Source: Collinsella sp. (GTDB lineage Bacteria > Actinomycetota > Coriobacteriia > Coriobacteriales > Coriobacteriaceae). From it: DNA of 64,000 bases. A model generated the notes under the pieces. It was not told where the DNA came from and did not search any database. It was given only the letters and a program-made list of their open reading frames with translations. Location of the stretch: positions 26,898 through 90,897 of the forward strand of contig JAGZWV010000003.1 in the NCBI GenBank assembly GCA_018378775.1, written 5' to 3'. Position 1 is the stretch's first letter, and each line of letters starts with the position of its first letter. The position numbers were made by a program, and so were the translations under genes. Of this stretch, positions 6,437 through 44,297 are shown piece after piece.

Positions 6437-6438
6437 AG

Positions 6439-6480
6439 ATACGCCCCGGTCCCAACGTCGGTTGGGACCGGGGCGTATTG
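6439..6480. terminator. bidirectional rho-independent terminator hairpin between convergent genes
   Basis: ACGCCCCGGTCCCAACGTCGGTTGGGACCGGGGCGT perfect 14-bp stem directly after the kinase stop, flanked by A/T runs. Confidence 0.7.
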
Positions 6481-6506
6481 CTATTTGCAAGAGCCTGCTT
6501 CGGGGT

Positions 6507-6986
6507 TTACTTTTCGTGAATCTGCTTGCCGCAGAGATGCTCAATCGTAATTTCGTACAGCTGAACGCCCTTGATGTCCTTGGCGATTTCTTCCTCGACC
6601 TCTTCGGCGGTGGGGTAGTACTTGAGCGCGAGCTCACGGACCTTGTCCTCGATAAATGCGGGGGTGTCATTCGCTAGGCGGCAACGGCCAAAGACAACGG
6701 TGCTCTGCACGTAGGGAGCCCAGTCGTCATCCTTGTACCAGTCGTTGCCGTAAACGGTAAAGCAGACCTTGTCATCGCGCTTGAGTGCGTCGACCTTGTG
6801 GCCAGCCTTGGCGCCATGGAAATAAATCTTGTCGCGCTCGGCGTCAAAGAAGTAGTTGACGGGGATGGCGTACGGGTAGCCATCGTCGCCGTTGACGGCA
6901 AAGACGCCGCGCTTGCAGGTGGCGAGCAGTTTGCGCGCTTCCTCGTCGGTGATGGCGCGTTTCTTTCGACGTAAGGGCCTAAACAT
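6507..6986 (-). CDS. pyridoxamine 5'-phosphate oxidase family FMN-binding protein (split-barrel)
   Basis: 159 aa. GVFAVNGDDGYPYAIPVNYFFDAERDKIYFHGAKAGHKVDAL pattern typical of PNPOx-like/general stress protein 26 family. Confidence 0.65.
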   Translation of the reverse strand: MFRPLRRKKRAITDEEARKLLATCKRGVFAVNGDDGYPYAIPVNYFFDAERDKIYFHGAKAGHKVDALKRDDKVCFTVYGNDWYKDDDWAPYVQSTVVFGRCRLANDTPAFIEDKVRELALKYYPTAEEVEEEIAKDIKGVQLYEITIEHLCGKQIHEK

Positions 6987-9900: not shown

Positions 9901-10010
9901 TAGTCATTGGGGACGTTCTTAAACGACTAGTCATCGGGGACGTTCTTGTTTGACTAGTCATTTAAGAACGTCCCCGATGACTAGTTCCGTTTGCGGGGGA
10001 GGCGTGGGAC
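9901..10010. promoter_or_regulatory. composite palindromic cis-element: three copies of 20-bp unit TAGTCATYGGGGACGTTCTT (two direct, one inverted) plus GGCGTG-GACAAT box
   Basis: Units at 9901-9920(+), 9928-9947(+), 9965-9984(-); the second and third form a perfect 20-bp inverted repeat. Followed by GGGGAGGCGTGGGACAAT ~45 bp before the K+ channel ATG. Near-identical element at 23866-23945. Confidence 0.5.
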
Positions 10011-22418: not shown

Positions 22419-23801
22419 TTAGCGGGCTGTCGCTTTGGCTTGGGTGGCGCGATAGGTGCGTGCCGGGTGGCAGAGTAGTACCGCCACGACCATAAAGAAC
22501 GCCGTGGTGCCCAGGCTGATGGGATAGACCATCATGATGTTCGCAAAGGTGCGGAAGTGCGGGAACACGCAGAACACCCAATAGAAGCGGATGCCACAGA
22601 CGCAGATCATGGTGATGAGGGCGGGCGTGAGCGAGATACCAAAGCCGCGCAGGTAGCCTGACATGTTTTCGTAGAACATGCTAAAGGCGTACGCCGGGAA
22701 GATCGAGCACACGCGGATATAGCCGATCGAGACGATATTGGGATCGCTGTTGAACAGCGATAGGATCTCGCGCCCCAAGCCGACAATAACGATAATTGTG
22801 GTGAGCGCGACGATACCACCTTCGACCAGGCAGACCTTGAGCGTTTTGGTGCAGCGGTCGATCTGGCGGGCACCGTGGTTTTGTCCCACAAAGGTGGTGC
22901 AAGCCTGGCTAAAGCTGTTGAGCAGGTTGTAGCACACATACTCTAGACTCATGGCGGCGCTCGATGCCGCCATGACTTCGGTGCCCAGGCTGTTGATGGC
23001 AGACTGGATGATGATGTTGGCGACGGCAAAGACGGCGCTTTGGATGCCGGCGGGCAGGCCGATCTTGACGATGCGCTTGAGGGCGACGGGGTCGATAGCC
23101 AGGTCGCGTAGGGTGACGCGGACGACGGAGTCGGTCTTGAGCAGGCGGATAAAGAGTGTAGCGGCACTGACGGTGTAGGCGATGGCGGTGGCGATGGCGA
23201 CGCCCGCGACGCCCCAGTGGAGTACGGGGACAAAGATGAGATCCAGACCAATGTTGAGGACGGTGGACACTGCAAGCGCCTGCAGCGGCATGCGGGTGAT
23301 GCCGACGGAGCGGAAGATCGCGGCCTCAAAGTTGTAGAGCAAGATCGAGGGCATGCTCAGCAAAAAGACGCGCAGGTAGAGCGAAGCGAGCGGCATGGTC
23401 TCGGCGGGAACGTTGAGCGCGGCGAGCATGGGCTCGGCAAAGATCTCGCCCAGTGCGATGACGACAAAGCCCACGAGCGCCATTAAAATCGAGGTATGGA
23501 CGGCGCGTTTGACCATGTTCTGATCGTTGCGGCCGATAGCGTTGGCGATGACCACGTTGGAGCCAAGCGACATGCCAATAAACAGGTTGAGCATAAGACT
23601 GGTAAGCGGAACATTGGAGCCAACTGCCGCCATGGCGAGGGTTCCCTGGTCGCCCGAGAAGTTACCGATGATGACCGTGGCGATGAGGTTCGACAGCTGC
23701 TCCAAGATGCTCGTGGCGGCCACGGGGAAGGCGAATAGGGGAATATTGCGCCACAGCGAGCCGGTGGTCATGTCAATGTGCTTAGATACGGTGTCAGCCA
23801 T
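22419..23801 (-). CDS. MATE-family multidrug efflux transporter
   Basis: 460 aa, 12 TM; N-terminal LWRNIPLFAFPVAATSILEQLSNLIATVIIGNFSG typical of MatE/NorM. Confidence 0.85.
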   Translation of the reverse strand: MADTVSKHIDMTTGSLWRNIPLFAFPVAATSILEQLSNLIATVIIGNFSGDQGTLAMAAVGSNVPLTSLMLNLFIGMSLGSNVVIANAIGRNDQNMVKRAVHTSILMALVGFVVIALGEIFAEPMLAALNVPAETMPLASLYLRVFLLSMPSILLYNFEAAIFRSVGITRMPLQALAVSTVLNIGLDLIFVPVLHWGVAGVAIATAIAYTVSAATLFIRLLKTDSVVRVTLRDLAIDPVALKRIVKIGLPAGIQSAVFAVANIIIQSAINSLGTEVMAASSAAMSLEYVCYNLLNSFSQACTTFVGQNHGARQIDRCTKTLKVCLVEGGIVALTTIIVIVGLGREILSLFNSDPNIVSIGYIRVCSIFPAYAFSMFYENMSGYLRGFGISLTPALITMICVCGIRFYWVFCVFPHFRTFANIMMVYPISLGTTAFFMVVAVLLCHPARTYRATQAKATAR

Positions 23802-23979: not shown

Positions 23980-24795
23980 ATGTTGTTGTGTCCTGTTTGC
24001 CATGAACCGTTGGTGGATGACGAACGTGGTGCTGCATGCGCGGGCGGACACCGGTTTGACCGTGCGCGCGAGGGCTATCTATATCTGCTGCGCTCGTCCA
24101 AGAGCGGCGACTCCATGGGCGATCCCAAGTCGCAGGCGCGCAGTCGTCGTGATTTTCTGAACCGTGGATACTACGCGCCGTTGCGCGATGCGATGGTTGA
24201 GCTGGTGCGCAAGCAGGTGTCTGGGCGTGCCACGTCTACGGATGGTTCCATGACGCTGCTCGATATTTGCTGCGGTGAGGGCTATTACACGAGTGCCCTG
24301 GGCGCGGTGCCGGGCGTGGACGCTTACGGGTTCGACTTGGGCAAAGAGATGGTGCGCCTGGCCGCCAAGCGCGGCGATGCGACCTACTTCGTGGCCAACA
24401 TGAAGGACATCCCCGTGGCCGATGGCGCCTTCGATATGGTGACCGAACTCTTTGCTCCCTTTAACGAGCGCGAGTTTGCCCGCGTGCTGGCGCCAGAGGG
24501 TTCACTCTATACCGTGGTACCGGGTGCTCGTCATCTCTTTGGGCTCAAAGAGGTGCTCTACGACACGCCGTACCTTAACGATGAGAAGCTGCCGAAGACC
24601 ACCGAGCTCGAGTTGGTCGGAACGCAGCGGGTATCTGCGAATATTACGCTTCAGACCCAGGCCGACATCGAGGCGGTGTTCCAGATGACGCCGTACTACT
24701 ACCGCACACGCCCTGCCGATAAAGAGCGTCTGGCAAACCTCGATACTCTTCAGACCGACATCGACTACATCATCGCCGAATACCGCCACAGCTAA
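23980..24795 (+). CDS. rlmA: 23S rRNA (guanine745-N1)-methyltransferase RlmA/RrmA-like (Zn-ribbon + class I SAM MTase)
   Basis: N-terminal CPVCHEPL...CAGGHRFD zinc ribbon, YLYLL, DICCGEGYY SAM motif I; RlmA family layout. Confidence 0.7.
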   Translation: MLLCPVCHEPLVDDERGAACAGGHRFDRAREGYLYLLRSSKSGDSMGDPKSQARSRRDFLNRGYYAPLRDAMVELVRKQVSGRATSTDGSMTLLDICCGEGYYTSALGAVPGVDAYGFDLGKEMVRLAAKRGDATYFVANMKDIPVADGAFDMVTELFAPFNEREFARVLAPEGSLYTVVPGARHLFGLKEVLYDTPYLNDEKLPKTTELELVGTQRVSANITLQTQADIEAVFQMTPYYYRTRPADKERLANLDTLQTDIDYIIAEYRHS

Positions 24796-25756: not shown

Positions 25757-26461
25757 ATGGGCGTCGTCGATCCCTTTTCTGTTGCTCGGTCCGCGGGGCT
25801 TGAGCTGATCGGGAAGTCCGAGGGCCTCACACTCACCGATGGCACGATGGAGCTGCGTGCCGATTTTGGCCGCATGCTTCCACGGCTCAAGCAGGGCCGT
25901 CTGCAGCAAGAACTGCTGGTAAAGGCTGCGCGCGCAAAAGGCATCGAGAGCCCATGGGCGATTGACGCCACGGCAGGCTTTGGCGAGGATTCGCTGCTGC
26001 TGGCGGCCGCGGGCTTTACCGTCGATCTGTATGAGCAGGATTGCGTGATCGCGGCGCTCCTCAAGGATGCTTTGGATCGCGCGGCAGATGATCCGGCGCT
26101 TGCGACAGCCGTGGCGCGCATGCGCTTACATGCGGGCGAGGACAGCATTGCCGGCCTTCGCCATACGGCTGAGTTGATCGGGCAGGGCGAGCTTGCCGCT
26201 CCCGACGTGGTGTATCTGGACCCCATGTTTCCCGGGCGCACCAAGAGCGCGGCGGTTAAAAAGAAGTTCCAACTCTTGCACCATCTGGAACAGCCGTGCA
26301 CCGATGAGGAGACGCTGGTCGAAGCTGCGCTTGCGGTGCATCCGCGCAAGGTGGTTATCAAGCGACCGGTGAAGGGGCCGCTGCTTGCCGGCGTTAAGCC
26401 GAGCTATCAACTTGCGGGCAAGGCCGTTCGCTACGATGTTTTGGTGCCGCCGCGCCCGTAG
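25757..26461 (+). CDS. rsmJ: 16S rRNA (guanine1516-N2)-methyltransferase RsmJ-like class I SAM methyltransferase
   Basis: AIDATAGFGEDSLLLAAAGFTVDLYEQDCVIAALLKDAL matches RsmJ (YhiQ) motif VxDATAGLGRDAFxLA...ERNPVVAALL; VYLDPMFP. Confidence 0.65.
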   Translation: MGVVDPFSVARSAGLELIGKSEGLTLTDGTMELRADFGRMLPRLKQGRLQQELLVKAARAKGIESPWAIDATAGFGEDSLLLAAAGFTVDLYEQDCVIAALLKDALDRAADDPALATAVARMRLHAGEDSIAGLRHTAELIGQGELAAPDVVYLDPMFPGRTKSAAVKKKFQLLHHLEQPCTDEETLVEAALAVHPRKVVIKRPVKGPLLAGVKPSYQLAGKAVRYDVLVPPRP

Positions 26462-26509
26462 CTTGCGCGCGATAGGCGCCGCTCCGTCAGTGCCGTGCCG
26501 AAGCGGCGC

Positions 26510-26806
26510 CTATTTCCAAGGGTGCGACGTCAGGTGCCATCCGCCGCAGTATTCGCATTTGTAGCAGGCCAGCCCGCGGCGTCCGCGGTTTTCGCAGTCG
26601 GCCATAACTGCCTCGGCCTCGGCACGCGTGTCGTAACGGTTTTTGCGCTCGCACGACTTGTAGCGCCAGGCTTCATCGCGCTCGGCGTCCAGGGCGTCGC
26701 GGCGCTCGTCCTCGCGTGCAAACAGGTCGCTCATATCGCCGCCGGTGGCAGCGCCTAAAAACTCGCTTTTGGCCTTTGACCAGGCGGCTCGCTTTTTGCT
26801 TCCCAT
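26510..26806 (-). CDS. hypothetical Cys-rich small protein
   Basis: 98 aa from ATG 26806; C-terminal CYKCEYCGGWHL plus upstream Cys residues suggest a zinc-ribbon; no family assignable. Confidence 0.35.
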   Translation of the reverse strand: MGSKKRAAWSKAKSEFLGAATGGDMSDLFAREDERRDALDAERDEAWRYKSCERKNRYDTRAEAEAVMADCENRGRRGLACYKCEYCGGWHLTSHPWK

Positions 26807-26880
26807 CTGCTTCGCGCCCCTCTGCAAACGTTGGTATCATTGCTCAATCAAAGTGATACCAATAAACGTGAGGTCGCCGC

Positions 26881-27372
26881 GTGATGATCAGAAAAACCCT
26901 CGATACCGACACTCCCGCCGTCATGGCTATCTATGACGTGGCCCGCGCCTTTATGCGCGCGCATGGCAACGCCACGCAGTGGCCCGAGGGCACGCCTTCG
27001 GCCGAGCAGCTGGCTGCCGATATTGCCGCTGGTGGCAGTTACGTGTGCGAAGTCGACGGCCGCGTGGTGGCGACGTTTGCCTTTTTACCGGGTCCGGACG
27101 AGTGCTATGACGTCATTGAGGACGGTCAATGGCGCAGCGACACTCCGTATGCCGTGCTGCATCGCGTGGCATCCGACGGCACCGTGCACGGTATCGCGGC
27201 GGCGATGTTTGCCTTTGCCAAGGAATGCGCCGACCATCTGCGTATTGACACGCACGAGGACAACTTGCCCATGCAGGGCGCCATCGCCAAGGCGGGGTTC
27301 GAGCGTGTCGGTATCGTCTATGTGTCCGACGGCACGGCGCGTGTCGCGTTTGATTGGCTGCGCGAGGCGTAG
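26881..27372 (+). CDS. GNAT-family N-acetyltransferase
   Basis: 163 aa; acetyl-CoA binding region HRVASDGTVHGIAAAMFAFAKEC and C-terminal GFERVG typical of GNAT fold. Confidence 0.75.
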   Translation: MMIRKTLDTDTPAVMAIYDVARAFMRAHGNATQWPEGTPSAEQLAADIAAGGSYVCEVDGRVVATFAFLPGPDECYDVIEDGQWRSDTPYAVLHRVASDGTVHGIAAAMFAFAKECADHLRIDTHEDNLPMQGAIAKAGFERVGIVYVSDGTARVAFDWLREA

Positions 27373-27403
27373 GAGCCAAGGCACGTATCATCACCCAGCT
27401 CAA

Positions 27404-27436
27404 ATAAAAAATGGCCCCGAGTGGGGCCATTTTTGG
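27404..27436. terminator. rho-independent terminator
   Basis: AAAAAATGGCCCCGAGTGGGGCCATTTTTGG perfect hairpin flanked by A and T runs after the GNAT gene. Confidence 0.8.
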
Positions 27437-27678
27437 TAAAACGCGTCGTTGTGGGACTCGCATTGTTACCGCCCCAGATGAACCCGGGCAGACAAAAAGG
27501 GGAGGTGCCGGCTTTCGCAAGGCGCGAACCTACGAAAATCGCCGCGCGGCAACGCGGGGCGATGAGCTCGGTCGGGGGATAGGGCCCGCTTCGCCCACCG
27601 GCCCGTAAATTGTATCATCCAGTGTGGAGCGTGAACGCCCGTTGCCGCGTGCGATGGGCTTGCAATAAGAGGAGAGCC

Positions 27679-29682
27679 ATGTCGAAGCAAGCGGTCGTTG
27701 GAATCTTGGCGCATGTCGATGCCGGCAAGACCACGTTGGCCGAGGCCATGCTGTTCAACGCGGGCCGCATTCGCAAGCGTGGCCGCGTGGACGATGGCGA
27801 TTCGCATCTGGACACTAACACGATCGAGCGCGAGCGCGGCATCACGATTTTCTCGTCGCAGGCCGTGCTCGACCACGGCGATACCCACGTCATACTCGTG
27901 GATGCTCCCGGCCATGTCGATTTTTCTGCCGAGGCGGAGCGCACACTGCGTGCCCTGGACTACGCGATTCTGGTGGTGGGCGCCAACGATGGCGTGCAGG
28001 GGCACACCGAAACCCTGTGGCGCCTGCTTGCACGCTATGACATCCCGACGTTCATCTTCATCAACAAGATCGATTTGGAGAATCCCGGCCGCGATGTTTT
28101 GCTGGCACAGCTTGGGCAGCGTCTTTCCGAAGGCTGCCTGGATGCCAACGAACTGCTGGCGGGCGGTGCCGTTCAGGAGGACGCTGCTGCGTTGGACGAG
28201 GCGGCGCTCGAGGAGTTTCTTGAAGCGGGTGAGCTTTCCGTTGCAACGCTGTCGCGCATGGTTGCCGAGCGCAAGCTCTTTCCCTGTTTTGCCGGCTCGG
28301 CGCTCAAGGACCAGGGCGTGGACGAGCTGCTGGATGGTATATGCGCACTGATGCGTGAACGGGCATGGCACCCGGAGTTTGCCGCGTGCGTCTACCGTGT
28401 GAGCCGCGGGGATCGCGGCGAGCGCTTGGCATGGGTTAAAGTGACCGGCGGCACGCTGCATGCCAAACAGCTGATTAACGGACGTTCCGGCGCCGAGGCG
28501 TGGGAGCAAAAGATCGACCAGGTGCGCATCTATAACGGCGAGAAATACGAGCTTGCCCAGGAAGTTGCCGCTGGCGGCATCTGCACCGTGACGGGTCTTG
28601 CGCACGTTCGCCCGGGTGATGCCCTGGGCGCGGAGCCCGCGGGCGATACGCCCGTCATTGCGCCGGTCCTCACCTATACGGTGCTTCCGGGCGAACACGA
28701 TGTCCACGCGGTGTTCAAAGCGCTGACTGAGTTGGCGGACGAAGATCCCATGCTCGGCGTAAGCTGGAACACGCATCTTGAACAAATACATCTGCAGCTC
28801 ATGGGAGCGGTGCAGCTCGAGGTCGTGCAGCGCGTGCTGGCCGATCGTTTTGGCCTTGCGGTCGAGTTTGAGCCCGGCGGCATCCTCTTTAAGGAGACCA
28901 TTTCGCAGCCGGTCGAGGGCGTGGGCCACTTTGAGCCGCTGCGCCACTATGCCGAGGTACATCTGCGCTTGGAGCCGTTGTCGGCGGGCTCGGGCGTGCA
29001 GTTTGGCACCGTGACCTCGACCGACGAGCTCGATCTTAACTGGCAGCGTTTGGCGCTCACCAACGCTATGGAGCGCGATCACCTGGGCGTGCTGACCGGC
29101 TCGCCCATCACCGATGTGCGCATTACGCTCACAGGTGGTCGCGCGCATGCCAAACACACCGAGGGCGGCGATTTTCGCCAGGCCACGTACCGCGCGATTC
29201 GCCAGGGGCTCATGCAGGCGCGTGAAGCCGGCGCGGCGGTGCTGTTGGAGCCGTGGTATCGCTTTGAGCTCGAGGTGCCGGGGGAGTGCGTGGGCCGGGC
29301 GCTCTCGGATGCCACGCGCATGGATGCCGAGTACGAGCCGCCGGCGATGGCGGGGGACCGGGCGAAGCTTGTGGGTCGCGTGCCGGCATCCGAGGTGCAG
29401 GACTATGCCCTGGAGGTGGCTGCCTACACGAGCGGTCGCGGACATCTGTACCTGGAGTTCGCCGGCTATGCGGCTTGTCATGATGCCGAGCGCGTCATCG
29501 AGACTGCCGCCTATGAGCCAGAGGCCGATCTGCCCAACACGCCCGATTCGGTCTTTTGCTCTCACGGCGCCGGTTACACGGTCAAATGGTGCGACGTCCC
29601 CGCCGCAGCGCACGTAAAGGTCGATCCCGCCACCTTTCGCCCCTGGCGAGCAGCAGACGCGGAGTTTTTCGGCCACATGTAA
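27679..29682 (+). CDS. Tet(M)/Tet(O)-like ribosomal protection protein (translation-factor GTPase paralog)
   Basis: VGILAHVDAGKTTLAEAMLFNAGRIRKRGRVDDGDSHLDTNTIERERGITIFSS...DAPGHVDFSAEAERTLRALDYAILVVGANDGVQGHTETLWRLLARYDIPTFIFINKID closely parallels the Tet(M) G-domain; length 667 aa (TetM 639). Native-like GC. Preceded by a ~240-nt leader. Confidence 0.65.
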   Translation: MSKQAVVGILAHVDAGKTTLAEAMLFNAGRIRKRGRVDDGDSHLDTNTIERERGITIFSSQAVLDHGDTHVILVDAPGHVDFSAEAERTLRALDYAILVVGANDGVQGHTETLWRLLARYDIPTFIFINKIDLENPGRDVLLAQLGQRLSEGCLDANELLAGGAVQEDAAALDEAALEEFLEAGELSVATLSRMVAERKLFPCFAGSALKDQGVDELLDGICALMRERAWHPEFAACVYRVSRGDRGERLAWVKVTGGTLHAKQLINGRSGAEAWEQKIDQVRIYNGEKYELAQEVAAGGICTVTGLAHVRPGDALGAEPAGDTPVIAPVLTYTVLPGEHDVHAVFKALTELADEDPMLGVSWNTHLEQIHLQLMGAVQLEVVQRVLADRFGLAVEFEPGGILFKETISQPVEGVGHFEPLRHYAEVHLRLEPLSAGSGVQFGTVTSTDELDLNWQRLALTNAMERDHLGVLTGSPITDVRITLTGGRAHAKHTEGGDFRQATYRAIRQGLMQAREAGAAVLLEPWYRFELEVPGECVGRALSDATRMDAEYEPPAMAGDRAKLVGRVPASEVQDYALEVAAYTSGRGHLYLEFAGYAACHDAERVIETAAYEPEADLPNTPDSVFCSHGAGYTVKWCDVPAAAHVKVDPATFRPWRAADAEFFGHM

Positions 29683-29702
29683 CAAAGGGACAGCCCCTTT
29701 GT
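29682..29702. terminator. AAAGGGACAG-core hairpin after the Tet-like gene
   Basis: ACAAAGGGACAGCCCCTTTGT starting at the stop codon. Confidence 0.55.
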
Positions 29703-29775
29703 CATATGCTATTGGTATAACTCGGTACAAGTTGGTATAACTATTACCGGGGTTTGCCAATCCGAGGAGGCCGAC

Positions 29776-30894
29776 ATGAATCCAAATCCCTTTAAGCCCA
29801 CGGCTGGCAAGCGGCCTCCGATACTCATCGGCCGCGAGTCGGTCATCGAAGATTTCGAGGAAGGACTCGATAACGGCGCCGGAGCGCCGGGTAGGCTCAT
29901 GCTCATTACGGGAAACCGCGGCTGTGGCAAGACGGTTCTCCTGCGGGAACTGCAACGTCTCGCCAACGAGCGCGGATGGGCGGTTGTCTCCGATTCCGCC
30001 TCGCTTGGCTTATGCGACCGCTTGGCCGACGCGCTTCGCTCGAATAAACCCGTTGTGACGTCAATGGAGTTTGGGCCGTCGTTTGGCCGGATGTCGGTCG
30101 AGGCGGCGCGAGCAAAGGGCGAAACGTTGCGAGGGCTGGTCAACGAGCGCCTCAAGAAACTCGGGCCGGGAAAGGGCTTACTGTTTGCGATTGACGAGGC
30201 CCAATCTGCGTCTATCGAGGAACTGGCGGCTCTTGCCGTTCTCTATCAGCAAGTGCTCGGAGATCAAGATGCCACGGGCTTGTCCGATAGCGACCAGCGC
30301 GGTCTTGCGCTGGTGTTCGCCGGCTTACCCAGTATGGTTGATGACTTGCTCGAAGAGCCGAGCGTGACGTTTTTGCGGCGTGCTCAGCAGCGTACGCTGG
30401 GGGCGATTTCTTTGCCCAAAGTGCGCGATTCGTATATCCAGACGGTCAAAGACGCTGGCCTTTACGTTGATGCGGAGATGGCAGACCTCGCGGCGCGCAA
30501 GAGCATGGGGCATCCCTATATGGTTCAGCTGGTGGGATATTACATGTGGCGCTCTGCTGTCCGGCGTGACTCGCGGGTCATTGAAGAGCGCGATGTTGAG
30601 GCTGGGCACGCGGATGCCGTCTCCGAGTTCTACGAAGCGGTTGACGCGCCTCTGTATTACGGGCTGCACAGTCCGCAGCGCCTCTTTATCGAGGCCATGG
30701 CGGCTGACGGGGGCAAACCGACTCGCATGGCGGATATCATTGAGCGTTGCGATCGCACCCAAAGCTGGGCGAGCAAATATCGCGCAAGCCTGATTCGCGA
30801 GCGCGTCATCGAGGCTGCCGGATACGGCCTCGTCCGGTTTACCGTGCCCATGCTGGGCGCGTACATTCGCGATCGAGTTATATGGCATGAGTAG
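29776..30894 (+). CDS. AAA+/STAND-like P-loop ATPase with C-terminal wHTH-like region (Arch_ATPase/AAA_16-like)
   Basis: SD gaggagg before ATG; KRPPILIGRESVIEDFEEGLDNGAGAPGRLMLITGNRGCGKTVLLREL Walker A; Walker B LLFAIDEAQ; 372 aa. Confidence 0.6.
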   Translation: MNPNPFKPTAGKRPPILIGRESVIEDFEEGLDNGAGAPGRLMLITGNRGCGKTVLLRELQRLANERGWAVVSDSASLGLCDRLADALRSNKPVVTSMEFGPSFGRMSVEAARAKGETLRGLVNERLKKLGPGKGLLFAIDEAQSASIEELAALAVLYQQVLGDQDATGLSDSDQRGLALVFAGLPSMVDDLLEEPSVTFLRRAQQRTLGAISLPKVRDSYIQTVKDAGLYVDAEMADLAARKSMGHPYMVQLVGYYMWRSAVRRDSRVIEERDVEAGHADAVSEFYEAVDAPLYYGLHSPQRLFIEAMAADGGKPTRMADIIERCDRTQSWASKYRASLIRERVIEAAGYGLVRFTVPMLGAYIRDRVIWHE

Positions 30895-30919
30895 GGTGAT
30901 AAAGGTGACGGAACAGAAG

Positions 30920-33400
30920 ATGAACCCGCAGGCTATCGAGGTGCGTGGCGCGCGCGTCCATAACCTCAAAGACATCGATATCGATATTCCGCTGGGAAAG
31001 CTCGTGGGCATTGCCGGCGTGTCGGGTTCGGGCAAGAGTTCGCTGGCGCTCGGGGTTCTTTATGCCGAGGGCTCGTGCCGCTATCTGGAGGCGCTCAGCA
31101 CCTATACCCGCCGTCGTCTGACGCAGGCCGAGCACGCCCAGGTGGACGAGGTGCTGCACGTGCCAGCGGCGCTCGCATTACATCAGCGCCCCAGCGTACC
31201 GGGCGTGCGCTCGACCTTTGGTACCATGACCGAGCTCAACAATAGCCTGCGTCTACTCTTTAGCCGTTGCGCCCATCACGTGTGCCCGCATTGCGGGGCG
31301 CGTGTGGAGCCGAGCCTTAACGTGGCTGCGGGCCTGTCGCTCACGTGTCCGACATGCGGCCGCGAGTTCTACGCGCCGAGTGCCGAGGATTTGGCTTTCA
31401 ATAGCGGCGGTGCGTGCCCTACCTGCGGCGGCACCGGTGTCATGCGCGAGGTAGACGAGGCGAGCCTGGTGCCCGACGAGTCAAAGACCATCAACGAGGG
31501 TGCGGTGCTTCCCTGGGGCACGCTCATGTGGGACCTGATGAAGCAGGTGGCCGGCGAGATGGGCGTGCGCACCGACGTGCCGTTTAACCAGCTCACGCCT
31601 CAAGAGCGCGACATCGTGTTTCACGGCCCGGCGGTTAAGAAGCACATTCTCTACGTTCCCAAAAACGGCGAGGGCGCCACGCCGCTCGACTTTACCTATT
31701 ACAACGCCGTCTATACCGTTGAGAATGCGCTCGCCAAGGTTAAGGACGATAAGGGGCTTAAGCGTGTGGCTCGCTTTTTGCGCGAGGGACCATGCCGTGA
31801 CTGCGCCGGCACGCGTCTCTCCGAGGCTGCGCGCCAGCCCCAGGTGCGCGGTATCAATCTGGCTCAGGCCGCGGCCATGACGCTTGGTGATGCGATCGAG
31901 TGGGTGCGCGGGGTGCCCGCATCCTTGCCGGCCGAGATGCGGCCCATGGCGACGGATATCTGCGATTCGTTTTTGAGCACGGCTCGTCGTCTGGTCGACC
32001 TGGGTCTCGATTACCTTTCGCTCGATCGCGCCGGTGCCACGCTCTCCACGGGTGAGCGCCAGCGCGTGCAACTCGCCCGCGTGGTGCGCAACCGATCGAC
32101 AGGCGTGCTCTATGTGCTGGACGAGCCCTCAATTGGCTTGCATCCTGCCAATGTCGACGGCTTGGTGGGCGTAATGCGCGACCTGGTGGATGACGGCAAT
32201 ACCGTGGTTGTTGTCGACCACGATACACGTGTGCTGGCGGAGGCTGATTATCTGGTCGAGATGGGCCCCGTTGCCGGAGCAGGCGGCGGCAACGTAATCG
32301 CCGCTGGTACGGTAGAGGAGGTCGAGCAATCGCAGGACAGCCGTATCGCGCCGTTTTTGCGCGCCGAGCCCAAGCGCTTGCGTCCGCAGGTGACTGACGA
32401 CGAAATGTTCGACCAGGGCCATATCCGCATGGCGACCGATACCATCCATACCGTCAAGCCGCTCGAAGTCGATATTCCGCGCGGTCGCTTGGTCGCGGTT
32501 ACGGGTGTTTCGGGTTCGGGCAAGACGACGTTGGTGCTCGAGACGCTCATCCCGGCGCTTAAGGCGCAGGCAGCTGGCGAGCGCTTGCCACGCCACGTGC
32601 GCTGGATCGATGCCGAGGGCATTGCGCGTGCCAACCTGATTGACGCCACGCCCATCGGTGCCAACGTGCGCTCGACGGTGGCAACCTATGCCGACATCCA
32701 TGATGAGCTGCGCCGCGCCTTCGCCCGTACGCCCGAGGCCAAGGCAGCCGGCTGCAAGGCGGGCGCATTTAGCTACAACACTGGCGCCTTGCGCTGCCCT
32801 ACGTGTGATGGCACGGGCTCGATATCGCTCGACGTGCAGTTTTTGCCCGATGTCGAAATCGTCTGCCCGGCATGTCACGGCTCACGTTATGCAGACGCGG
32901 CTTCGCATATCCATCGCGAGGGCAAGGACGGGAGTCTGCTTACGTTGCCGCAGCTCATGGACATGAGTGTGGACGAGGCCATCGACGCCACGGTGGGGCT
33001 CAAGAAAGTTCAGACGCGCTTGCAGACCTTGCACGACCTTGGCTTGGGCTATCTCACGCTCGGTGAGCCCACGCCGGCGCTTTCGGGCGGCGAGGCTCAG
33101 CGTCTTAAGCTTGCGAGCGAGATGGGTCGCGTGCAGGATGATGCCGTGTTTGTGTTTGACGAGCCCACGATCGGACTACATCCGCTCGATGTTCAGGTGT
33201 TGCTGAGTGTGTTCGACGGCCTTGTTGCCAAAGGCGCCACGGTTATCGTGATCGAACACGATCTCGACCTTATCCGTAACGCCGATTACGTGATCGACAT
33301 GGGCCCGGGCGGTGGCGACGCCGGCGGGCAAATCGTCTGCGCCGGCACGCCAGACGACATCGCAGCCTGCTCCGCAAGCATCACCGGCCGCTACCTATAA
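30920..33400 (+). CDS. class-II UvrA paralog (UvrA2/DrrC-like ABC ATPase, lacks UvrB-binding domain)
   Basis: AIEVRGARVHNLKDIDIDIPLGKLVGIAGVSGSGKSSL aligns with UvrA N-terminus; zinc modules CPHCG...CPTCG, CPTCDGTG...CPACHG; second ABC VTGVSGSGKTTL, LSGGEAQRL. ~826 aa versus ~940 for canonical UvrA. An in-frame ATG at 30887 overlaps the upstream stop by 8 nt. Confidence 0.8.
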   Translation: MNPQAIEVRGARVHNLKDIDIDIPLGKLVGIAGVSGSGKSSLALGVLYAEGSCRYLEALSTYTRRRLTQAEHAQVDEVLHVPAALALHQRPSVPGVRSTFGTMTELNNSLRLLFSRCAHHVCPHCGARVEPSLNVAAGLSLTCPTCGREFYAPSAEDLAFNSGGACPTCGGTGVMREVDEASLVPDESKTINEGAVLPWGTLMWDLMKQVAGEMGVRTDVPFNQLTPQERDIVFHGPAVKKHILYVPKNGEGATPLDFTYYNAVYTVENALAKVKDDKGLKRVARFLREGPCRDCAGTRLSEAARQPQVRGINLAQAAAMTLGDAIEWVRGVPASLPAEMRPMATDICDSFLSTARRLVDLGLDYLSLDRAGATLSTGERQRVQLARVVRNRSTGVLYVLDEPSIGLHPANVDGLVGVMRDLVDDGNTVVVVDHDTRVLAEADYLVEMGPVAGAGGGNVIAAGTVEEVEQSQDSRIAPFLRAEPKRLRPQVTDDEMFDQGHIRMATDTIHTVKPLEVDIPRGRLVAVTGVSGSGKTTLVLETLIPALKAQAAGERLPRHVRWIDAEGIARANLIDATPIGANVRSTVATYADIHDELRRAFARTPEAKAAGCKAGAFSYNTGALRCPTCDGTGSISLDVQFLPDVEIVCPACHGSRYADAASHIHREGKDGSLLTLPQLMDMSVDEAIDATVGLKKVQTRLQTLHDLGLGYLTLGEPTPALSGGEAQRLKLASEMGRVQDDAVFVFDEPTIGLHPLDVQVLLSVFDGLVAKGATVIVIEHDLDLIRNADYVIDMGPGGGDAGGQIVCAGTPDDIAACSASITGRYL

Positions 33401-33403
33401 CCG

Positions 33404-33438
33404 AATGTGACAAAGGGACAGTTCCTTTGTCACATTCC
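33404..33438. terminator. AAAGGGACAG-core palindromic hairpin between convergent genes
   Basis: GAATGTGACAAAGGGACAGTTCCTTTGTCACATTC after uvrA2 stop. Confidence 0.6.
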
Positions 33439-34029
33439 CGGAAAGCCTGTTTGGCGCAGGGCTTCGTAGAGGACGATGGCGGCGCTGTTGGAGAGGTTGA
33501 GTGCGCTGATGCGGTAGTCGTCCGGGTTGACGAAGTTGCCGCAGATGTCTTGTTGAAGGATGGCCTCGTGGCCGTCCTCGGTATGCCCCAGCGATTCCTC
33601 GTGAGCTTCCCAAGCCTCGGCGTTATCGAGCGAGTCGCAATCGCGCAGCATGGGGATGCGCTCGCAGCGCTCGGGCGCCGCGGCAAGCAGAGGCTCGGGA
33701 ATGCCCGAGCTCTCGCTGCCAAAGACCAAGTAGTCGCCGTCGTGGTAGGTACTCTGCGCATAGGTGCGGCGTGCCTTTTTGGTCAGCAGATGTAGGCGCT
33801 CGTCGGCAGGGGAGAGACCGTTGCGTGCAAGGAAATCCTCCCAGCCGGCATAGGTCGTCACGTCCAAGTTTTGCCAGTAGCCCAGGCCGGCGCGGCGTAC
33901 CGTCTTGTCGTCGAGCGAAAAGCCCAGAGGCTCCACCAGATGCAGGCGGGCGCCGGTGACCACGCAGGTACGGCCGATATTGCCCGTATTGGCCGGAATC
34001 TCGGGCGCATACAGCACGATATTGAACAT
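33430..34029 (-). CDS. trmL: tRNA (cytidine/uridine34-2'-O)-methyltransferase TrmL (SpoU/TrmH family)
   Basis: MFNIVLYAPEIPANTGNIGRTCVVTGARLHLVEPLGFSLDDKTVRRAGLGYWQ aligns with E. coli TrmL N-terminus; C-terminal SPOUT knot motif NLSNSAAIVLYEALRQ. Confidence 0.75.
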   Translation of the reverse strand: MFNIVLYAPEIPANTGNIGRTCVVTGARLHLVEPLGFSLDDKTVRRAGLGYWQNLDVTTYAGWEDFLARNGLSPADERLHLLTKKARRTYAQSTYHDGDYLVFGSESSGIPEPLLAAAPERCERIPMLRDCDSLDNAEAWEAHEESLGHTEDGHEAILQQDICGNFVNPDDYRISALNLSNSAAIVLYEALRQTGFPGM

Positions 34030-34124
34030 GAATCTCCTTGGCTCAGAACGAAAAACCACCACGAAGAGCACCTTCGTGGTGGTTTAGCGGTTACATAGGC
34101 GGAAAAATGCCCGCTTGGATAAAC

Positions 34125-35276
34125 CTAGGCGCGGTGCCAGTCGGTCAGGCAGGCATCGAGGGAGGCGATGAGCGCATCCTTGTCCATGTGACGGCCGATG
34201 ATGCACAGGCTCGTCATGCGGTCGCCTGTCTCGTCGTCCCAAATCTGCATGATCTCGGGGTTCTCGTCGATGATCTTCTGCTTCTCGCCCTCGGGCGCCG
34301 AATCGACAAACAGGCCGTTCTCCATCAGGCGCATCTGGTGGCCGGCCTGCTCAAACATGTAGCACATGTCCGGATCGCCGGTCTGCCACAGCGGACCCTT
34401 GACGCGGATGACCTCGTCGGGCCACTCCTGCTCAACAAAATTGGTGAACTTCTGCAGGTCAAACGGCTTGCGGCGCGAGTACACAAAGGTCTCGATGTCG
34501 TACTCGAGCACCTCGGGGTCGTCGTGCTCCTCGGGATGCTCCATGGCCTCGATCCAGGCGGCGGAGTTGTAGGCGCGCATAAAGTCGAAGCGGTCGGTGT
34601 CGAGCAGCTCCTCCATGGGGACCTCGCCGTTTTGGGCCTCGACAATCACGGCGTCCTTCTGCAGGCTGCGCACGATGGCCTTGAGCTCGGCGATCTGCTC
34701 GGGCGTCACGGTATCGGTCTTGTTGAGGATCAGCGTGGAGCAGAATTCGATCTGCTGGATGAGTAGGCTTTCGATGTCGTCCTCGTCGATATCCTCGGCC
34801 AGCAGGTCGCGACCGCCGTTGAACTCGTCGTACATGCGGGCGCAGTCGACCACGGCCACGATGTTGTCGAGCGCGAGCTTGGGCTCGCCGCCCACCTTGG
34901 CCTCGTCGCAGAAGCTCGAGATGGTGTAGGCGATGGGGATAGGCTCGCAAATACCCGATGCCTCGATGATGATGTAGTCGAAGTTGCCCGAATCGGCGAT
35001 GCCCTGCAGCTGGTTGGCCAGGTCGTCCGAAAGCGTGCAGCAGATGCAGCCGTTGGTGAGCGGGATGAGGTCGTCGGTCTCGGAAAGGCCGCCGTCGGCG
35101 ATGAGGCTGGCGTCGACATTGATCTCGCCGATATCGTTGACGATCACGGCGGCGCGTATACCGCCATCGTTAGCGAGGATGTGGTTGAGCAGCGTGGTCT
35201 TGCCGGCACCGAGGTATCCGGTAAGCATGATGATCTTCACGGGTTTGTTGGGCATGTGCCCTCCTTTGTTAGACAT
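34125..35276 (-). CDS. COG0523/CobW-family GTPase (putative zinc metallochaperone)
   Basis: GYLGAGKTTLLNHIL P-loop; GCICC metal-binding motif (LTNGCICCTL); Asp/Glu/His-rich linker; CobW_C-like tail. Confidence 0.85.
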   Translation of the reverse strand: MSNKGGHMPNKPVKIIMLTGYLGAGKTTLLNHILANDGGIRAAVIVNDIGEINVDASLIADGGLSETDDLIPLTNGCICCTLSDDLANQLQGIADSGNFDYIIIEASGICEPIPIAYTISSFCDEAKVGGEPKLALDNIVAVVDCARMYDEFNGGRDLLAEDIDEDDIESLLIQQIEFCSTLILNKTDTVTPEQIAELKAIVRSLQKDAVIVEAQNGEVPMEELLDTDRFDFMRAYNSAAWIEAMEHPEEHDDPEVLEYDIETFVYSRRKPFDLQKFTNFVEQEWPDEVIRVKGPLWQTGDPDMCYMFEQAGHQMRLMENGLFVDSAPEGEKQKIIDENPEIMQIWDDETGDRMTSLCIIGRHMDKDALIASLDACLTDWHRA

Positions 35277-41255: not shown

Positions 41256-42125
41256 ATGGCACAGTCAAATATGACGCGCACGGTGGGGCTGGCGCTCGAG
41301 GGAGGCGGCTACCGCGGTATGTATACGGCGGGCGTGCTCGACGTTTGGATGGAGCACGGTTTGACCTGCGACCATATGGTGGGCGTCTCGGCGGGCGCGG
41401 CGTTTGGCTACAACTTTAAATCGCGCCAGATCGGCCGCGCCATTCGCTATAACAAGGCCTATTGCGCCGACAAGCGCTATGCGAGCGTGACCAGCTGGCT
41501 GCGAACCGGCGATATGTACAATGCCGACTTTGCTTATCACGAGGTGCCTATCGAGCGCGATCCTATCGACTTGGAGGCGTATCGCACCTGTCCCATGCGA
41601 TTTACGTGCGTGTGTACCGATATCGAGACGGGCAAGGCCGTCTATCACGATCTGCCGTATGGCGACGAGCGCGATATCGAGTGGATTCGGGCGTCGTCGG
41701 CAATTCCCGTGGCGACGCGTCCCGTTGCTATTGACGGGCATAAGTATCTGGATGGTGGCGTGGCTGATTCTATTCCCAGCGCGTGGCTGTTTGCGCAGGG
41801 GTATGACCGCAATATCGTGGTACTCACGCAGCCGGCGGGCTTTGTGAAGCAGCCCAACAGCGTGATGCCCATGCTGCGGCGCTTGTTCCGTCACTATCCG
41901 GAGTTTGTCGCAGCGCTTGAGCACCGGCATGAGGTCTACAATGCCACGCTCGATGACCTGGCACGTCGCGAGGCTGCCGGCGAGATCTTTGTGGTGCGTC
42001 CGAGCGAATCGGTGAAGGTGCCGTCGCTGTGTCGCGAGCCCGATGAACTTGAGCGCATCTACCAGATTGGTCGCCGCGATGCGGAGGCGACCTTGCCGGA
42101 ACTGGAGGCATATCTGGCAGGGTAG
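41256..42125 (+). CDS. patatin-like phospholipase
   Basis: GLALEGGGYRGMYTAGVL (GGxR oxyanion hole), GVSAGAA (GxSxG nucleophile), DGG catalytic Asp. Confidence 0.8.
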   Translation: MAQSNMTRTVGLALEGGGYRGMYTAGVLDVWMEHGLTCDHMVGVSAGAAFGYNFKSRQIGRAIRYNKAYCADKRYASVTSWLRTGDMYNADFAYHEVPIERDPIDLEAYRTCPMRFTCVCTDIETGKAVYHDLPYGDERDIEWIRASSAIPVATRPVAIDGHKYLDGGVADSIPSAWLFAQGYDRNIVVLTQPAGFVKQPNSVMPMLRRLFRHYPEFVAALEHRHEVYNATLDDLARREAAGEIFVVRPSESVKVPSLCREPDELERIYQIGRRDAEATLPELEAYLAG

Positions 42126-42147
42126 AGGCTGCTGCCGCCATCTCGGC

Positions 42148-42193
42148 GGAAAGCGCATCCCGGAATGGAGGCTCAAACTGGGATGCGCTTTCC
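42148..42193. terminator. bidirectional terminator hairpin
   Basis: GGAAAGCGCATCCCGG...CTGGGATGCGCTTTCC between convergent patatin and thiE. Confidence 0.6.
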
Positions 42194-42237
42194 ATTGCTG
42201 AAGATATGAGGCTGCGAATCAGCTGCTCGGCCTAGAC

Positions 42238-42933
42238 TTACGCCTGCTGCCAGGTGTCGACGAGCTCCTTGGCCGCGGCGTAGGGGTCATCGGCGCTGCA
42301 GACGGCGCTCACCACGAAAAAGCCGTCGACGCCGGTGGCCTTGAGCTGTGGCAGGTCGGCCGTCTTGACGCCGCCGCCCACCACGATGGGCACGGGGCTT
42401 GCCGCGTGGAGGGCGGCCAGGTCCTCAAAGCTCTTGGTGATGATAGAGCCGTCGGCCGCGCGTCCGCAGTCGCGCTTGGTCTCGGTCTCGTGGAGTGGGC
42501 CGATGCCCAGGTAGTCGACTAGGCTCATGTCGGCGGTCTTGACGTACTCGAGCATCTCCTCGCAACGGGCGGAAAGGCCCACGATGGCGTTGGGCCCCAG
42601 CAGCTTGCGACAGACCTCGACGGGAATGTCGCTCTGACCCACGTGCACGCCGTCGACAGCAATGCCCTGCTCGCGCGCGGCGAGTACGCAGTCCAGGCGG
42701 TCGTCAATCAGCAAAGCGACCTGACCGGTCTTGCCGGCCTGTGCGATTGCCTGCGCGGCGTCGCCGGTCAGCGCAATGATCTCGCGGGCGCTTGCCACCT
42801 TGGAGCGCACCTGGATGCAGGTAAAGCCGGCGTCGAGTGCCTGGGCCACCACATCGCCCACGGGGCGCCCGAGCGTGTTTTCGGGGCCGAGCACCAGATA
42901 GGCCGAGATATCAAGGTTGTCGCGGATACTCAT
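42238..42933 (-). CDS. thiE: thiamine-phosphate synthase
   Basis: YLVLGPEN...CIQVRSK...LIDDRLD...GVHVGQSD...LGIGPLHETETK...VVGGGV: ThiE signature blocks. Confidence 0.85.
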   Translation of the reverse strand: MSIRDNLDISAYLVLGPENTLGRPVGDVVAQALDAGFTCIQVRSKVASAREIIALTGDAAQAIAQAGKTGQVALLIDDRLDCVLAAREQGIAVDGVHVGQSDIPVEVCRKLLGPNAIVGLSARCEEMLEYVKTADMSLVDYLGIGPLHETETKRDCGRAADGSIITKSFEDLAALHAASPVPIVVGGGVKTADLPQLKATGVDGFFVVSAVCSADDPYAAAKELVDTWQQA

Positions 42934-43271
42934 CGTGTTTCCTCCTGCTTTTTGATCTGAGCTTCCATGCGCTCGAGCTTGCCGGTCATGGTGTCGGTAA
43001 ATCCGGGTCGAATATCGGCTTTGAGCACGACTTCGGTGCGGATGCCCTTGCTCGCCAACACAAAGGTTGCGTCGCGCACGACCTGCATGACCTCGTCCCA
43101 GTCGCCCTCGATCTCGGTGAACATCGAGGTGGTGCGGTTGGGAAGGCCGCTCTCGCGAATGACGCGCACGACCTCGGCGACCTCGGCGGACAGCTCATCG
43201 CCGGTGCCGCACGGGGCGATGGCCACGGCGACGAGCGTATTCATGCCGGCATTGGTTGCGGGCTCGGACAT
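42930..43271 (-). CDS. MTH1187/YkoF-family small thiamine-binding-like protein (DUF77)
   Basis: 113 aa; VAVAIAPCGTGDELSAEVAEVVRVIRESGLPNRTTSMFTEIEGDWDEVMQVV matches the MTH1187 fold pattern (xGxWDEVM). Located inside the thi operon. Confidence 0.6.
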   Translation of the reverse strand: MSEPATNAGMNTLVAVAIAPCGTGDELSAEVAEVVRVIRESGLPNRTTSMFTEIEGDWDEVMQVVRDATFVLASKGIRTEVVLKADIRPGFTDTMTGKLERMEAQIKKQEETR

Positions 43272-43274
43272 GGC

Positions 43275-44115
43275 CTATGCCTCCTCGAGGTCGAGCTGGT
43301 TGTTGGCGATGTCCTGGGCGGTTGCGCGGTAGAGCTCGTCGATAAAGGCGACCTTAAAGCTTGCCGGGGCGTCGGCGACAGCGGCGGCACGCGAGCCGGC
43401 AACGTTGTAGACGGCGGTGCCGCAGACGGCGGCCGTAAACGGGTCGGCAGCGCAGGCGTACACAGCCAGCACGCCGCCTTGCGAGCAGCCGCAACCGGTG
43501 ATCTTGGACATGAGCGGGCTGCCGCCGTGGGACTTGGCCACGGTCATGCCGTCGGTGATCAGGTCGACTTCGCCCGAGACCACAACGGCGCCGCCGGTGT
43601 AGCGGGCGAGCGCCACGGCGGCATCGCGGGCGGCGTCTACCGTGTCGGTGGTATCGACACCGCGCACGCGGCTCAGATCGGCCGCCTCGCCCTCAAGACC
43701 CCACAGGCCGGCGAGCGCGATGATCTCGGAGGCGTTGCCGCGCACGATGGCGGGCTTGTACTGCTTAAGCTCGTTTACCAACTGGGTGCGCAGACTGCCG
43801 ATGCCCAGGCCCACCGGATCGAGCACCCAGGACTTGCCGGCGTCGTGTGCCGCCTTGGCCGCGCGGGGAATCGTCTGCTCGTAGATGGGGAAGAGCGTGC
43901 CCATATTGAGATAGATGGCGCCGCCGCCGGCAACGAGCGCCTCGCCCTCGTCGGGCAGATAGACCATGGCGGCCGATCCGCCCACGGCGAGCTGCGCGTT
44001 GGCGACAAAGTCGATCGTCACCGTGTTGGTGATGGAGCCGGCCATCGGATTGGTGGTGCGAATCTCCTCCACGGCCTTGACCATATGTTGCTTAAGCTGT
44101 TCCGAATCAATCACT
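43275..44115 (-). CDS. thiM: hydroxyethylthiazole kinase
   Basis: GTG start 44115 preceded by SD aaggagg (8 nt); ITNTVTIDFVANAQLAVGGSAAM, GCGCSQGGVLAVYA typical ThiM blocks; 280 aa. The longer 317-aa ORF in the track runs into the riboswitch. Confidence 0.8.
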
Positions 44116-44136: not shown

Positions 44137-44275
44137 AAAAGGGGCGCTGTGCATAGACAGCGCCCCTGTAAAGGCGGCATGCTCCCTACGCCAGCATTAA
44201 CTGACAGGTTCAAAGGATTGGGCCCCATGCCCTCTCAGCCTTGTGGTTTGCACCGCCGGCACTCCCGCATCGAAT
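44137..44275 (-). ncRNA. TPP (thiamine pyrophosphate) riboswitch with terminator expression platform
   Basis: Minus-strand reading: GGGAGTGCCGG...GGCTGAGAGGG...CCTTTGAACCTGTCAGTTAATGCTGGCGTAGGGA (THI-box: CUGAGA + ACCUG-N-UAAUGC(C/U)AGCGUAGGGA) followed by terminator CAGGGGCGCTGTCTATGCACAGCGCCCCTTTT and the SD/GTG of thiM. Confidence 0.85.
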
Positions 44276-44297
44276 CTGTTGTTCCCTATACTAGCGC

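Follow-up and report, generated by a model that had tools for sequence, protein, structure and literature searches.

Genes for a Tet-like GTPase, an ORC-like ATPase and a UvrA paralog in a Collinsella locus are probably independent neighbors

Introduction

Do adjacent genes from families that include drug-target protectors form one protective system, or do they only lie side by side? The question is raised by a 64,000-nucleotide (nt) stretch of DNA from Collinsella sp., hereafter the window, in which three consecutive plus-strand genes encode a Tet-like translational GTPase (27679-29682), a P-loop ATPase (29776-30894) and a UvrA paralog (30920-33400; gene uvrA2). A preliminary description of this DNA placed the three genes correctly, and read them as a target-protection cluster with a new ATPase/UvrA2 pairing. 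We confirm the genes, their strand and their positions. The pairing, in contrast, was found only within the genus, and we conclude that this is probably a recombination-prone Collinsella stretch that holds three independent genes rather than one system.

The window has a GC content of ~59% and is C. aerofaciens-like. The same locus is present in dozens of Collinsella genomes, and the best tblastn segment of the window ATPase is 100% identical to the ATPase of a C. aerofaciens metagenome-assembled genome. Gene families, domain content, distribution, junction variants, the spread of repeats and palindromes, and RNA covariation were observed directly; biochemical activities and transcription units are all inferred from them.

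Results

The three genes share a locus only within Collinsella

We find the trio together only within Collinsella: in the C. aerofaciens group, in locus L086 in the same order, and in locus L092 in the permuted order uvrA2-GTPase-ATPase. The scan of genome contigs returned near-identical Collinsella loci only, and distant contexts come from 12 single-protein look-ups. There, ATPase relatives stand singly between unrelated housekeeping genes (76% identity in L085, 72% in L088, 59% in L081 and 53% in L082), a UvrA2 relative at 80% identity stands alone, and GTPase relatives in Enorma and Thermophilibacter-like genomes (67-69% identity) occur with neither partner. In L217, which has the same upstream synteny as the window, a GTPase-NYN fusion is followed by a nucleoside phosphorylase gene, with no ATPase or uvrA2 gene after it. 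Adjacency of the ATPase and uvrA2 genes, on which the preliminary description had staked its proposal beforehand, is not conserved across the genera or independent contexts sampled. It was found only in Collinsella, is interrupted in 16 of the 80 close genomes, and is absent from L092 and from the relatives sampled outside the locus.

The ATPase-uvrA2 junction differs among these 80 genomes: 64 have the junction type of the window, 13 have a GNAT gene (Acetyltransf_3, 179-184 aa; L017 7170-7724, L218 10276-10815), and three have a palindrome alone. In the 64 and in L086, uvrA2 starts 2-28 nt past the ATPase stop. Alignment with other strains shows that the window retains a degenerate left palindrome arm, GGTGATAAAGG (30895-30905, no strand), fused to the 5' end of uvrA2. 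Because the alignment leaves half a palindrome joined to uvrA2, we interpret the window-type junction as a deletion scar. The deletion removed the rest of the palindrome and, relative to other strains, the GNAT gene.

Close spacing of the two genes, as first described, stands, while the proposed overlap at ATG 30887 probably does not. The ATPase stop codon occupies 30892-30894, and the homologous uvrA2 start is GTG 30905 (831 aa) or ATG 30920 (826 aa), 10-25 nt downstream. These starts are preferred because the upstream segment is non-contiguous in strains with a junction insert, and because canonical UvrA begins a few residues before the IxVxGAR motif. The tight junction probably allows read-through into uvrA2 from the ATPase promoter, a coupling that would be a strain-level accident rather than designed.

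Other blocks vary as well. In 51 of 73 genomes, uvrA2 and spoU are separated by a second AAA_16 paralog, on the minus strand and 32% identical to the ATPase; the window is without it. Four L218 proteins (ATPase, GNAT, UvrA2 and SpoU) are 94-97% identical to the window, and the L218 GTPase is only 70% identical, with different upstream genes and a breakpoint at the palindrome. Since just the GTPase block is divergent, L218 represents a swap of alleles inside one species group, and we reject it as evidence that the cluster is deeply conserved.

A dispersed palindrome marks the block boundaries

The 31-nt palindrome TGTGACAAAGGGACnGnnCCTTTGTCACA occurs exactly twice in the window, where no copy is expected by chance. 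One copy (ATGTAACAAAGGGACAGCCCCTTTGTCATAT, 29677-29707, no strand) overlaps the GTPase stop codon, which lies in its left arm. The other (33403-33437, no strand, 14-bp stem) lies between the stops of the convergent uvrA2 and spoU genes, with the spoU stop codon in its right arm. Every block boundary of the related loci has a copy.

This element is not specific to the locus. A metagenome scan, whose counts are lower bounds, found at least 163 copies in at least 120 loci (L093-L212) at no fewer than 37 distinct sites; ~15 of the 120 loci listed are the locus studied here. Among the 163 copies listed, 118 are no more than 30 nt away from where an open reading frame (ORF) of at least 120 aa stops, often with the stop inside an arm. 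The copies have no U-tract, and a role as terminator is uncertain. The palindrome is thus a dispersed Collinsella element, either REP-like (repetitive extragenic palindromic) or terminator-like, around copies of which gene blocks would be inserted, deleted, permuted and swapped. An integron-like reading was set aside, not disproved: at 31 nt the element is not attC-sized and it occupies at least 37 unrelated sites; an integrase was not searched for.

The GTPase belongs to a separate Tet-like subfamily

The GTPase gene starts at ATG 27679, after AGGAGA, and ends at 29682; a start in the longer TTG ORF from 27610 is unlikely. Tens of thousands of database members likewise have the 667-aa form as their called product. 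Its preliminary assignment as a Tet-like GTPase is borne out at the level of family. Pfam finds GTP_EFTU, EF-G_D2, EFG_III, EFG_IV and EFG_C, the full EF-G-like architecture of domains G and II-V, and the top NCBIfam model is tet_protect (NF012153, 419.7 bits). This score is below the curated cut-off of 775 for ribosomal protection proteins (RPPs). EF-G models rank after it (254-305 bits, NCBIfam), and eight relatives from the same subfamily score 370-423 bits on tet_protect. Compared with solved structures, the GTPase matches TetO at 244 bits, TetM at 229, EF-G at ~215 and TetQ at 125.

The region that acts on the drug is different. In TetO and TetM, the domain-IV loop YYSPVSTPADFR displaces tetracycline (PMC4342817). 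A structure-sequence alignment places AHAKHTEGGDFR in this position as loop III of the GTPase; the YSPVST tip motif is missing, and AHAKHTEGG occupies the aligned positions. In a search of 1.84 billion cluster representatives, of which we list the best 150 matches with more below them, at least 150 clusters match the GTPase at 530-795 bits and 42-58% identity. Because its scores with TetO, TetM and EF-G are far lower, we place the GTPase in a large separate subfamily. The tip motif G(R/K)AHxKHTEGGDFR is near-invariant there, being kept in 133-149 of 151 sequences (the best 150 representatives plus the query).

Most members of this subfamily are longer than the window protein: 118 of the 150 nearest representatives have at least 800 aa, and 26 are of short-form length, 600-720 aa. 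All three long forms tested (representatives P0242 and P0245, and P0400 from Collinsella) carry a C-terminal YacP-like NYN domain (PF05991), which a Pfam scan did not find in the 667-aa window GTPase. Atkinson 2015 (PMC4342817) had already recorded Tet proteins to which a YacP-like NYN RNase domain is appended, and had placed them in a broad "Tet" subfamily. The window GTPase groups neither with validated RPPs, where the preliminary description had expected it, nor with EF-G; it falls in a separate, NYN-associated Tet-like subfamily.

The label "Tet-like" is fair by similarity, and the GTPase falls outside the set of validated RPPs. An RNA function associated with the ribosome is suggested by its relatives. 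The protein would bind around the A site of the ribosome in the manner of EF-G and Tet(M), and a role in ribosome-associated surveillance or rescue seems likelier than tetracycline removal because the relatives carry a ribosome-dependent RNase domain.

Three further observations concern GTPase genes. P0400 (L217 7001-9640) is near-identical to the window GTPase up to about residue 520, and beyond this point roughly half of the positions are identical; the pair has the form of a mosaic gene and recalls mosaic tet genes. At least two source annotations name the GTPase "TetM/TetW/TetO/TetS family tetracycline resistance protein." The Thermophilibacter-like loci L214 and L215 encode at 5095-6591 (minus strand) a 498-aa protein with two ABC_tran domains, divergent from the GTPase, which we suspect from domain content alone to be an ABC-F-like ribosome factor.

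A conserved leader RNA candidate precedes the GTPase gene

A ~240-nt leader with several hairpins had been proposed upstream of the GTPase gene. The spacer is in fact 306 nt long, because the true upstream gene is a GNAT gene at 26881-27372. The whole leader (251-nt fold) is no more stable than shuffled sequence (z = 0.03), and an Rfam search of it at E <= 1 gave no match. We therefore reject many hairpins over the whole leader and retain a 100-nt core, R1 (27506-27605, plus strand), which lends support to the idea of a functional leader.

Column conservation and covariation both single out this core. Positions 27507-27678 are conserved at about 90% or more per column, mostly ~99%, across 72 loci of the C. 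aerofaciens group. The core recurs 5' of the GTPase gene in two other Collinsella species, and it follows the GTPase through three upstream contexts, the two that differ from the window being divergent mscL in L086 and uvrA2 in L092. The copies at L086 5438-5536, L092 11738-11836 and L217 6828-6927 share with the window copy a candidate four-way junction, predicted by RNAalifold, with the invariant loop AAGGCGCGAACCU. Helix 2, which closes this loop, reads UUUCG/CGAAA, CCCAC/GUGGG or CCUGC/GCAGG. In all, six R1 pairs are kept through changes on both sides, compared with 0-2 pairs with double changes in slid controls, and 95% of R1 cells are paired, compared with ~40% with slid partners. This support from covariation is moderate, because just three sequence types underlie it.

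Covariance-model matches to R1 are confined to Collinsella GTPase leaders in the ~1 Mb of Collinsella DNA scanned, and in L218 and other genera the model has no match upstream of the GTPase. A tRNA-like reading of the core was rejected, as ARAGORN finds no tRNA in the window. The idea that the invariant loop mimics rRNA was dropped. We regard R1, with moderate confidence from its sequence, as a candidate leader RNA, a structured 5' element of the GTPase gene. A bolder proposal is that R1 represents a new class of cis-regulatory RNA that controls the GTPase under translation stress or ribosome-targeting drugs, and that recombination at the palindromes reshuffles the blocks between them as integrase-free cassettes, so that NTPases directed at the ribosome or at DNA are reassorted in gut Coriobacteriia. 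This we consider speculative and rather doubtful.

The ATPase is ORC-like and carries its own repeats

The preliminary description of the second gene product as a P-loop ATPase with a C-terminal winged helix is upheld. The 372-aa protein matches AAA_16 at 51.9 bits (Pfam cut-off, 32.6), and its Walker A (GNRGCGKT) and Walker B (FAIDE) motifs are invariant in 52 sequences. An AlphaFold model from the alignment of these sequences (predicted local distance difference test, pLDDT, 87; predicted template-modeling score, pTM, 0.84) shows an AAA+ core with a lid and, at the C terminus, a winged helix, and replaces a poor earlier model from 10 sequences (pLDDT 63). Foldseek matches this model to RuvB, Orc1/Cdc6 and two archaeal PF01637-type ATPases, with query-normalized template-modeling scores of 0.59-0.63 for 1w5t, 2qen and 2fna. 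Of the classes that had been suggested for it, AAA_16 is the one given by Pfam; STAND-type C-terminal sensor repeats (TPR, WD40 or LRR) are missing, as the protein stops after the winged helix. It reaches no curated NCBIfam or PADLOC family, and it is not BREX BrxD (NF033438, 20.1 bits against a cut-off of 350; PADLOC BrxD, 18.9 bits over 53 residues).

This ATPase family is multi-copy and widespread in Coriobacteriia. In the window, a strong ribosome-binding site and an AT-rich upstream region precede the gene. Within that region, at 29712-29742 (plus strand), lie three tandem repeats of ~10 nt that read TTGGTATAAC / TCGGTACAAG / TTGGTATAAC, annotated in our feature list as TTGGTATAACT / CGGTACAAG / TTGGTATAACT. 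Every family member examined, across unrelated contexts, has three to nine copies of their core, RGTRYAA, upstream of it (L081, ~7940-7975; L082, 7866-7952; L085, ~7911-7945; L088, ~7283-7315; also L086 and L092). The pattern was found nowhere else in 217 loci, and within the window it occurs at the ATPase only (0.01 chance matches expected). Since the repeats accompany every family member examined, the ATPase gene carries its own cis element. The repeats are likely an iteron-like operator and probable promoter region of the ATPase, and the simplest inference from the sequence is self-regulation via the winged helix: the protein would bind its own repeats in an ATP-dependent manner and regulate its own promoter.

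The ATPase gene also occurs as no fewer than four independently frameshifted alleles (among P0025, P0034, P0070, P0104 and P0028). The frameshifts fall at residues ~199, ~209, ~245 and ~257, and every shifted product enters the same alternative frame and ends at 338 aa. Among the metagenome alleles, one is a deletion fusion of GTPase residues 1-175 to the ATPase. The frameshift alleles may be real inactivations or may in part be assembly errors. The gene is best explained as an accessory gene that is multi-copy, stands alone and is often inactivated. The paralog found beside spoU in other genomes (L003 9687-10760, minus strand) likewise combines AAA_16 with a winged helix-turn-helix, and has an HTH_24 match.

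The UvrA paralog has no UvrB-binding domain and is nearest to class I

The third protein scores 712.6 bits on TIGR00630, just below the cut-off of 729.8. Pfam finds ABC_tran in three stretches together with UvrA_DNA-bind, that is, two ABC modules and an insertion domain. Its residues 6-130 align with Bacillus UvrA 24-148 and its residues 142-826 with 269-952, so that the UvrB-binding domain (~120 aa, Bacillus UvrA 149-268) is replaced by 11 residues. Class IIa UvrA proteins (DrUvrA2 and Ecm16) are defined by loss of both this domain and zinc module 1 (PMC9328131, PMC10192343). The window paralog retains all zinc cysteines, those of zinc module 1 included: its CPHC and CPTC correspond in the alignment to the two CxxC pairs on either side of the class I UvrB-binding domain. 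It is also closer to class I UvrA (597 bits) than to DrUvrA2 (477) or Ecm16 (407), and no biosynthetic cluster was found among the neighboring genes examined.

Of the proposed class II assignment, therefore, the loss of the UvrB-binding domain stands, and the likeness to DrrC and Ecm16 does not. By its sequence, this is a UvrB-independent UvrA-like protein of slightly different make. It would bind distorted DNA but not initiate excision repair, and a role in shielding DNA, though possible, has no specific support.

Genomic setting

The genes around the trio include GNAT, SpoU, CobW, FMN reductase and GGDEF/EAL genes. Upstream, the GNAT acetyltransferase (26881-27372, plus strand, 163 aa, PF00583) is 88-99% identical in amino acid sequence within the C. 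aerofaciens group, and an intrinsic-terminator-like hairpin closes its gene (27407-27434, no strand; 12-nt arms, 100% complementary, with A/T runs on both sides). The ORF at 26933-27439, with an Arg/Pro/Cys-rich translation, is a wrong-frame artefact of this gene. Gene callers of public assemblies apparently give the same kind of wrong-frame ORF (162-168 aa, no Pfam match) upstream of the GTPase, and a "hypervariable 168-aa gene upstream" was dropped from consideration for this reason. Downstream lies the gene for a SpoU-family RNA methyltransferase (33430-34071, minus strand).

Several neighbors have ribosome- or drug-related annotations: a MATE pump (22419-23801, minus strand), an RlmA-like methyltransferase (23980-24795), an RsmJ-like SAM_MT protein (25757-26461), and SpoU. 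The stretch with these four genes is syntenic across Collinsella. GC content is 0.618-0.629 over 26001-34000, which covers the GNAT, GTPase, ATPase and uvrA2 genes, and 0.661 at 42001-44000, with flanks at 0.57-0.60. Elsewhere in the window, there is a thiamine pyrophosphate (TPP) riboswitch at 44166-44276 (minus strand; RF00059, 55.9 bits against a gathering score of 54.3) and, at 9926-9985, an unexplained long palindrome with 34-nt arms (91% complementary) and ACTAGTC repeats.

Discussion

How, then, should the three genes be read? As a resistance or self-protection cluster, the GTPase would shield the ribosome against tetracycline-like drugs, the UvrA paralog would shield DNA against intercalators, and the ATPase would be a partner or regulator of UvrA2, co-expressed by way of the tight junction. 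In keeping with this, tet_protect is the best model for the GTPase, the UvrB-binding domain is missing as in UvrA2, DrrC and Ecm16 (PMC9328131, PMC10192343), uvrA2 follows the ATPase gene by 2-28 nt in most close genomes and L086, the L092 permutation leaves all three genes in the locus, and MATE, rRNA methyltransferase and GNAT genes lie nearby. Yet the adjacency is genus-restricted, interrupted in a fifth of close genomes and lost through a changed gene order in L092; the relatives sampled away from the locus all stand alone; the tight junction is a deletion scar; and the ATPase gene, with a probable operator of its own, has been frameshifted repeatedly, whereas uvrA2 remains intact. Moreover, the GTPase reaches about half the RPP cut-off and has no YSPVST loop, and the UvrA paralog is nearer to class I than to UvrA2 or Ecm16 and lies outside any biosynthetic cluster. 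A protective cluster is thus quite unlikely. A defence or accessory hotspot, in which AAA_16 ATPases act as STAND/ORC-like sensors of invading DNA with the UvrA-like ATPase as DNA-directed effector or partner, would suit the variable blocks (the second AAA_16 paralog, the GNAT block, the allele swaps and the frameshifts) and the weak PADLOC matches to the N terminus of BrxD (18.9 bits, ATPase) and to mad3 (230 bits, second ABC half of UvrA2). We rejected these matches as too weak or too generic, since they span only the P-loop region or generic ABC folds, and the NCBIfam BrxD score of 20 is far from its cut-off of 350. The flanks examined contain no nuclease or other effector and no mobile-element genes, and the ATPase family occurs as single genes beside housekeeping genes. 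We regard this explanation as very improbable.

An ordinary operon offers another account: one transcript would run from the GTPase leader through uvrA2, with the palindromes as REP-like stabilizers rather than terminators, and the genes would be kept together for co-regulation under translation or DNA stress. The shared strand, the short spacers, the absence of U-tracts from the palindromes, and the lack of a detected sigma-70-like promoter in 26800-34200 all agree with it. It is unlikely nonetheless, because the ATPase has a conserved AT-rich, promoter-like repeat region and a strong ribosome-binding site in every context, L218 exchanges the GTPase and its leader with the rest untouched, and the order is permuted in L092. 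Three independent genes in a recombination-prone stretch remain the probable answer, against which several points must be set. Sampling beyond Collinsella is thin (four ATPase contexts, one for UvrA2 and three for the GTPase). The palindromes, being without U-tracts, may not terminate transcription, in which case the whole array could be co-transcribed. Ribosome-related or resistance-type genes (MATE, RlmA-like, RsmJ-like, SpoU and GNATs) crowd the neighborhood. Finally, the C. aerofaciens group, L086 and the permuted L092 all keep the three genes in one locus; because several Collinsella lineages do so, weak selection for proximity may act, and the trio may have a weak functional link within the genus.

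These results matter in the first place for annotation. The GTPase belongs to an abundant gut commensal, and because it scores below the curated RPP cut-off and has no drug-displacing loop, a test is needed before it is listed among resistance genes; a mis-annotation is thereby averted. The locus also illustrates that two genes which look tightly and translationally coupled can owe their junction to a recent deletion. The genes themselves belong to known families; the interest of the locus is modest and lies mainly in the leader RNA candidate, the ATPase together with its array of repeats, and the shuffling of palindrome-bounded blocks. For work on Collinsella and translational GTPases, the by-products are the candidate leader RNA, an ORC-like ATPase with an iteron-like operator, and a species-specific boundary palindrome.

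Comparison with known systems

Each component resembles a known system in part. Like the Tet(M)/Tet(O) RPPs, the window GTPase has five EF-G-like domains, aligns with them end to end in a single stretch, and has tet_protect as its best model. Unlike them, it scores below the cut-off, has another loop III and a different, longer C terminus, and is chromosomal, in a syntenic locus. Its nearest sequence family is that of the Tet-NYN translational GTPases, with which it shares the tip motif and whose NYN domain is carried by its same-locus homolog in L217. It differs from these in ending ~20 residues past the shared region, without NYN, and in the mosaic nature of its C-terminal third.

The ATPase has the three-part fold of core, lid and winged helix seen in Orc1/Cdc6 and PF01637-type ATPases (A. 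pernix ORC2, 1w5t; PAB2304, 2qen; SSO1545, 2fna) and in RuvB, although identity is just 13-16% and the window protein is bacterial, multi-copy and stand-alone. The direct repeats beside its gene recall origin or iteron arrays; they lie in the gene's own promoter region, and a replication role is without support. The UvrA paralog shares with class IIa UvrA proteins (D. radiodurans UvrA2, Ecm16 and DrrC) the two ABC modules, the insertion domain and the loss of the UvrB-binding domain, whereas it keeps zinc module 1, is nearer to class I UvrA, and lies outside an antibiotic biosynthetic cluster. Finally, the Collinsella palindrome is similar to REP-type intergenic palindromes in being short, GC-rich, near-perfect, present in many copies per genome, and located mostly right after stops. 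It differs from them in forming a Collinsella-specific sequence family, copies of which here mark the boundaries of inserted, deleted and swapped blocks.

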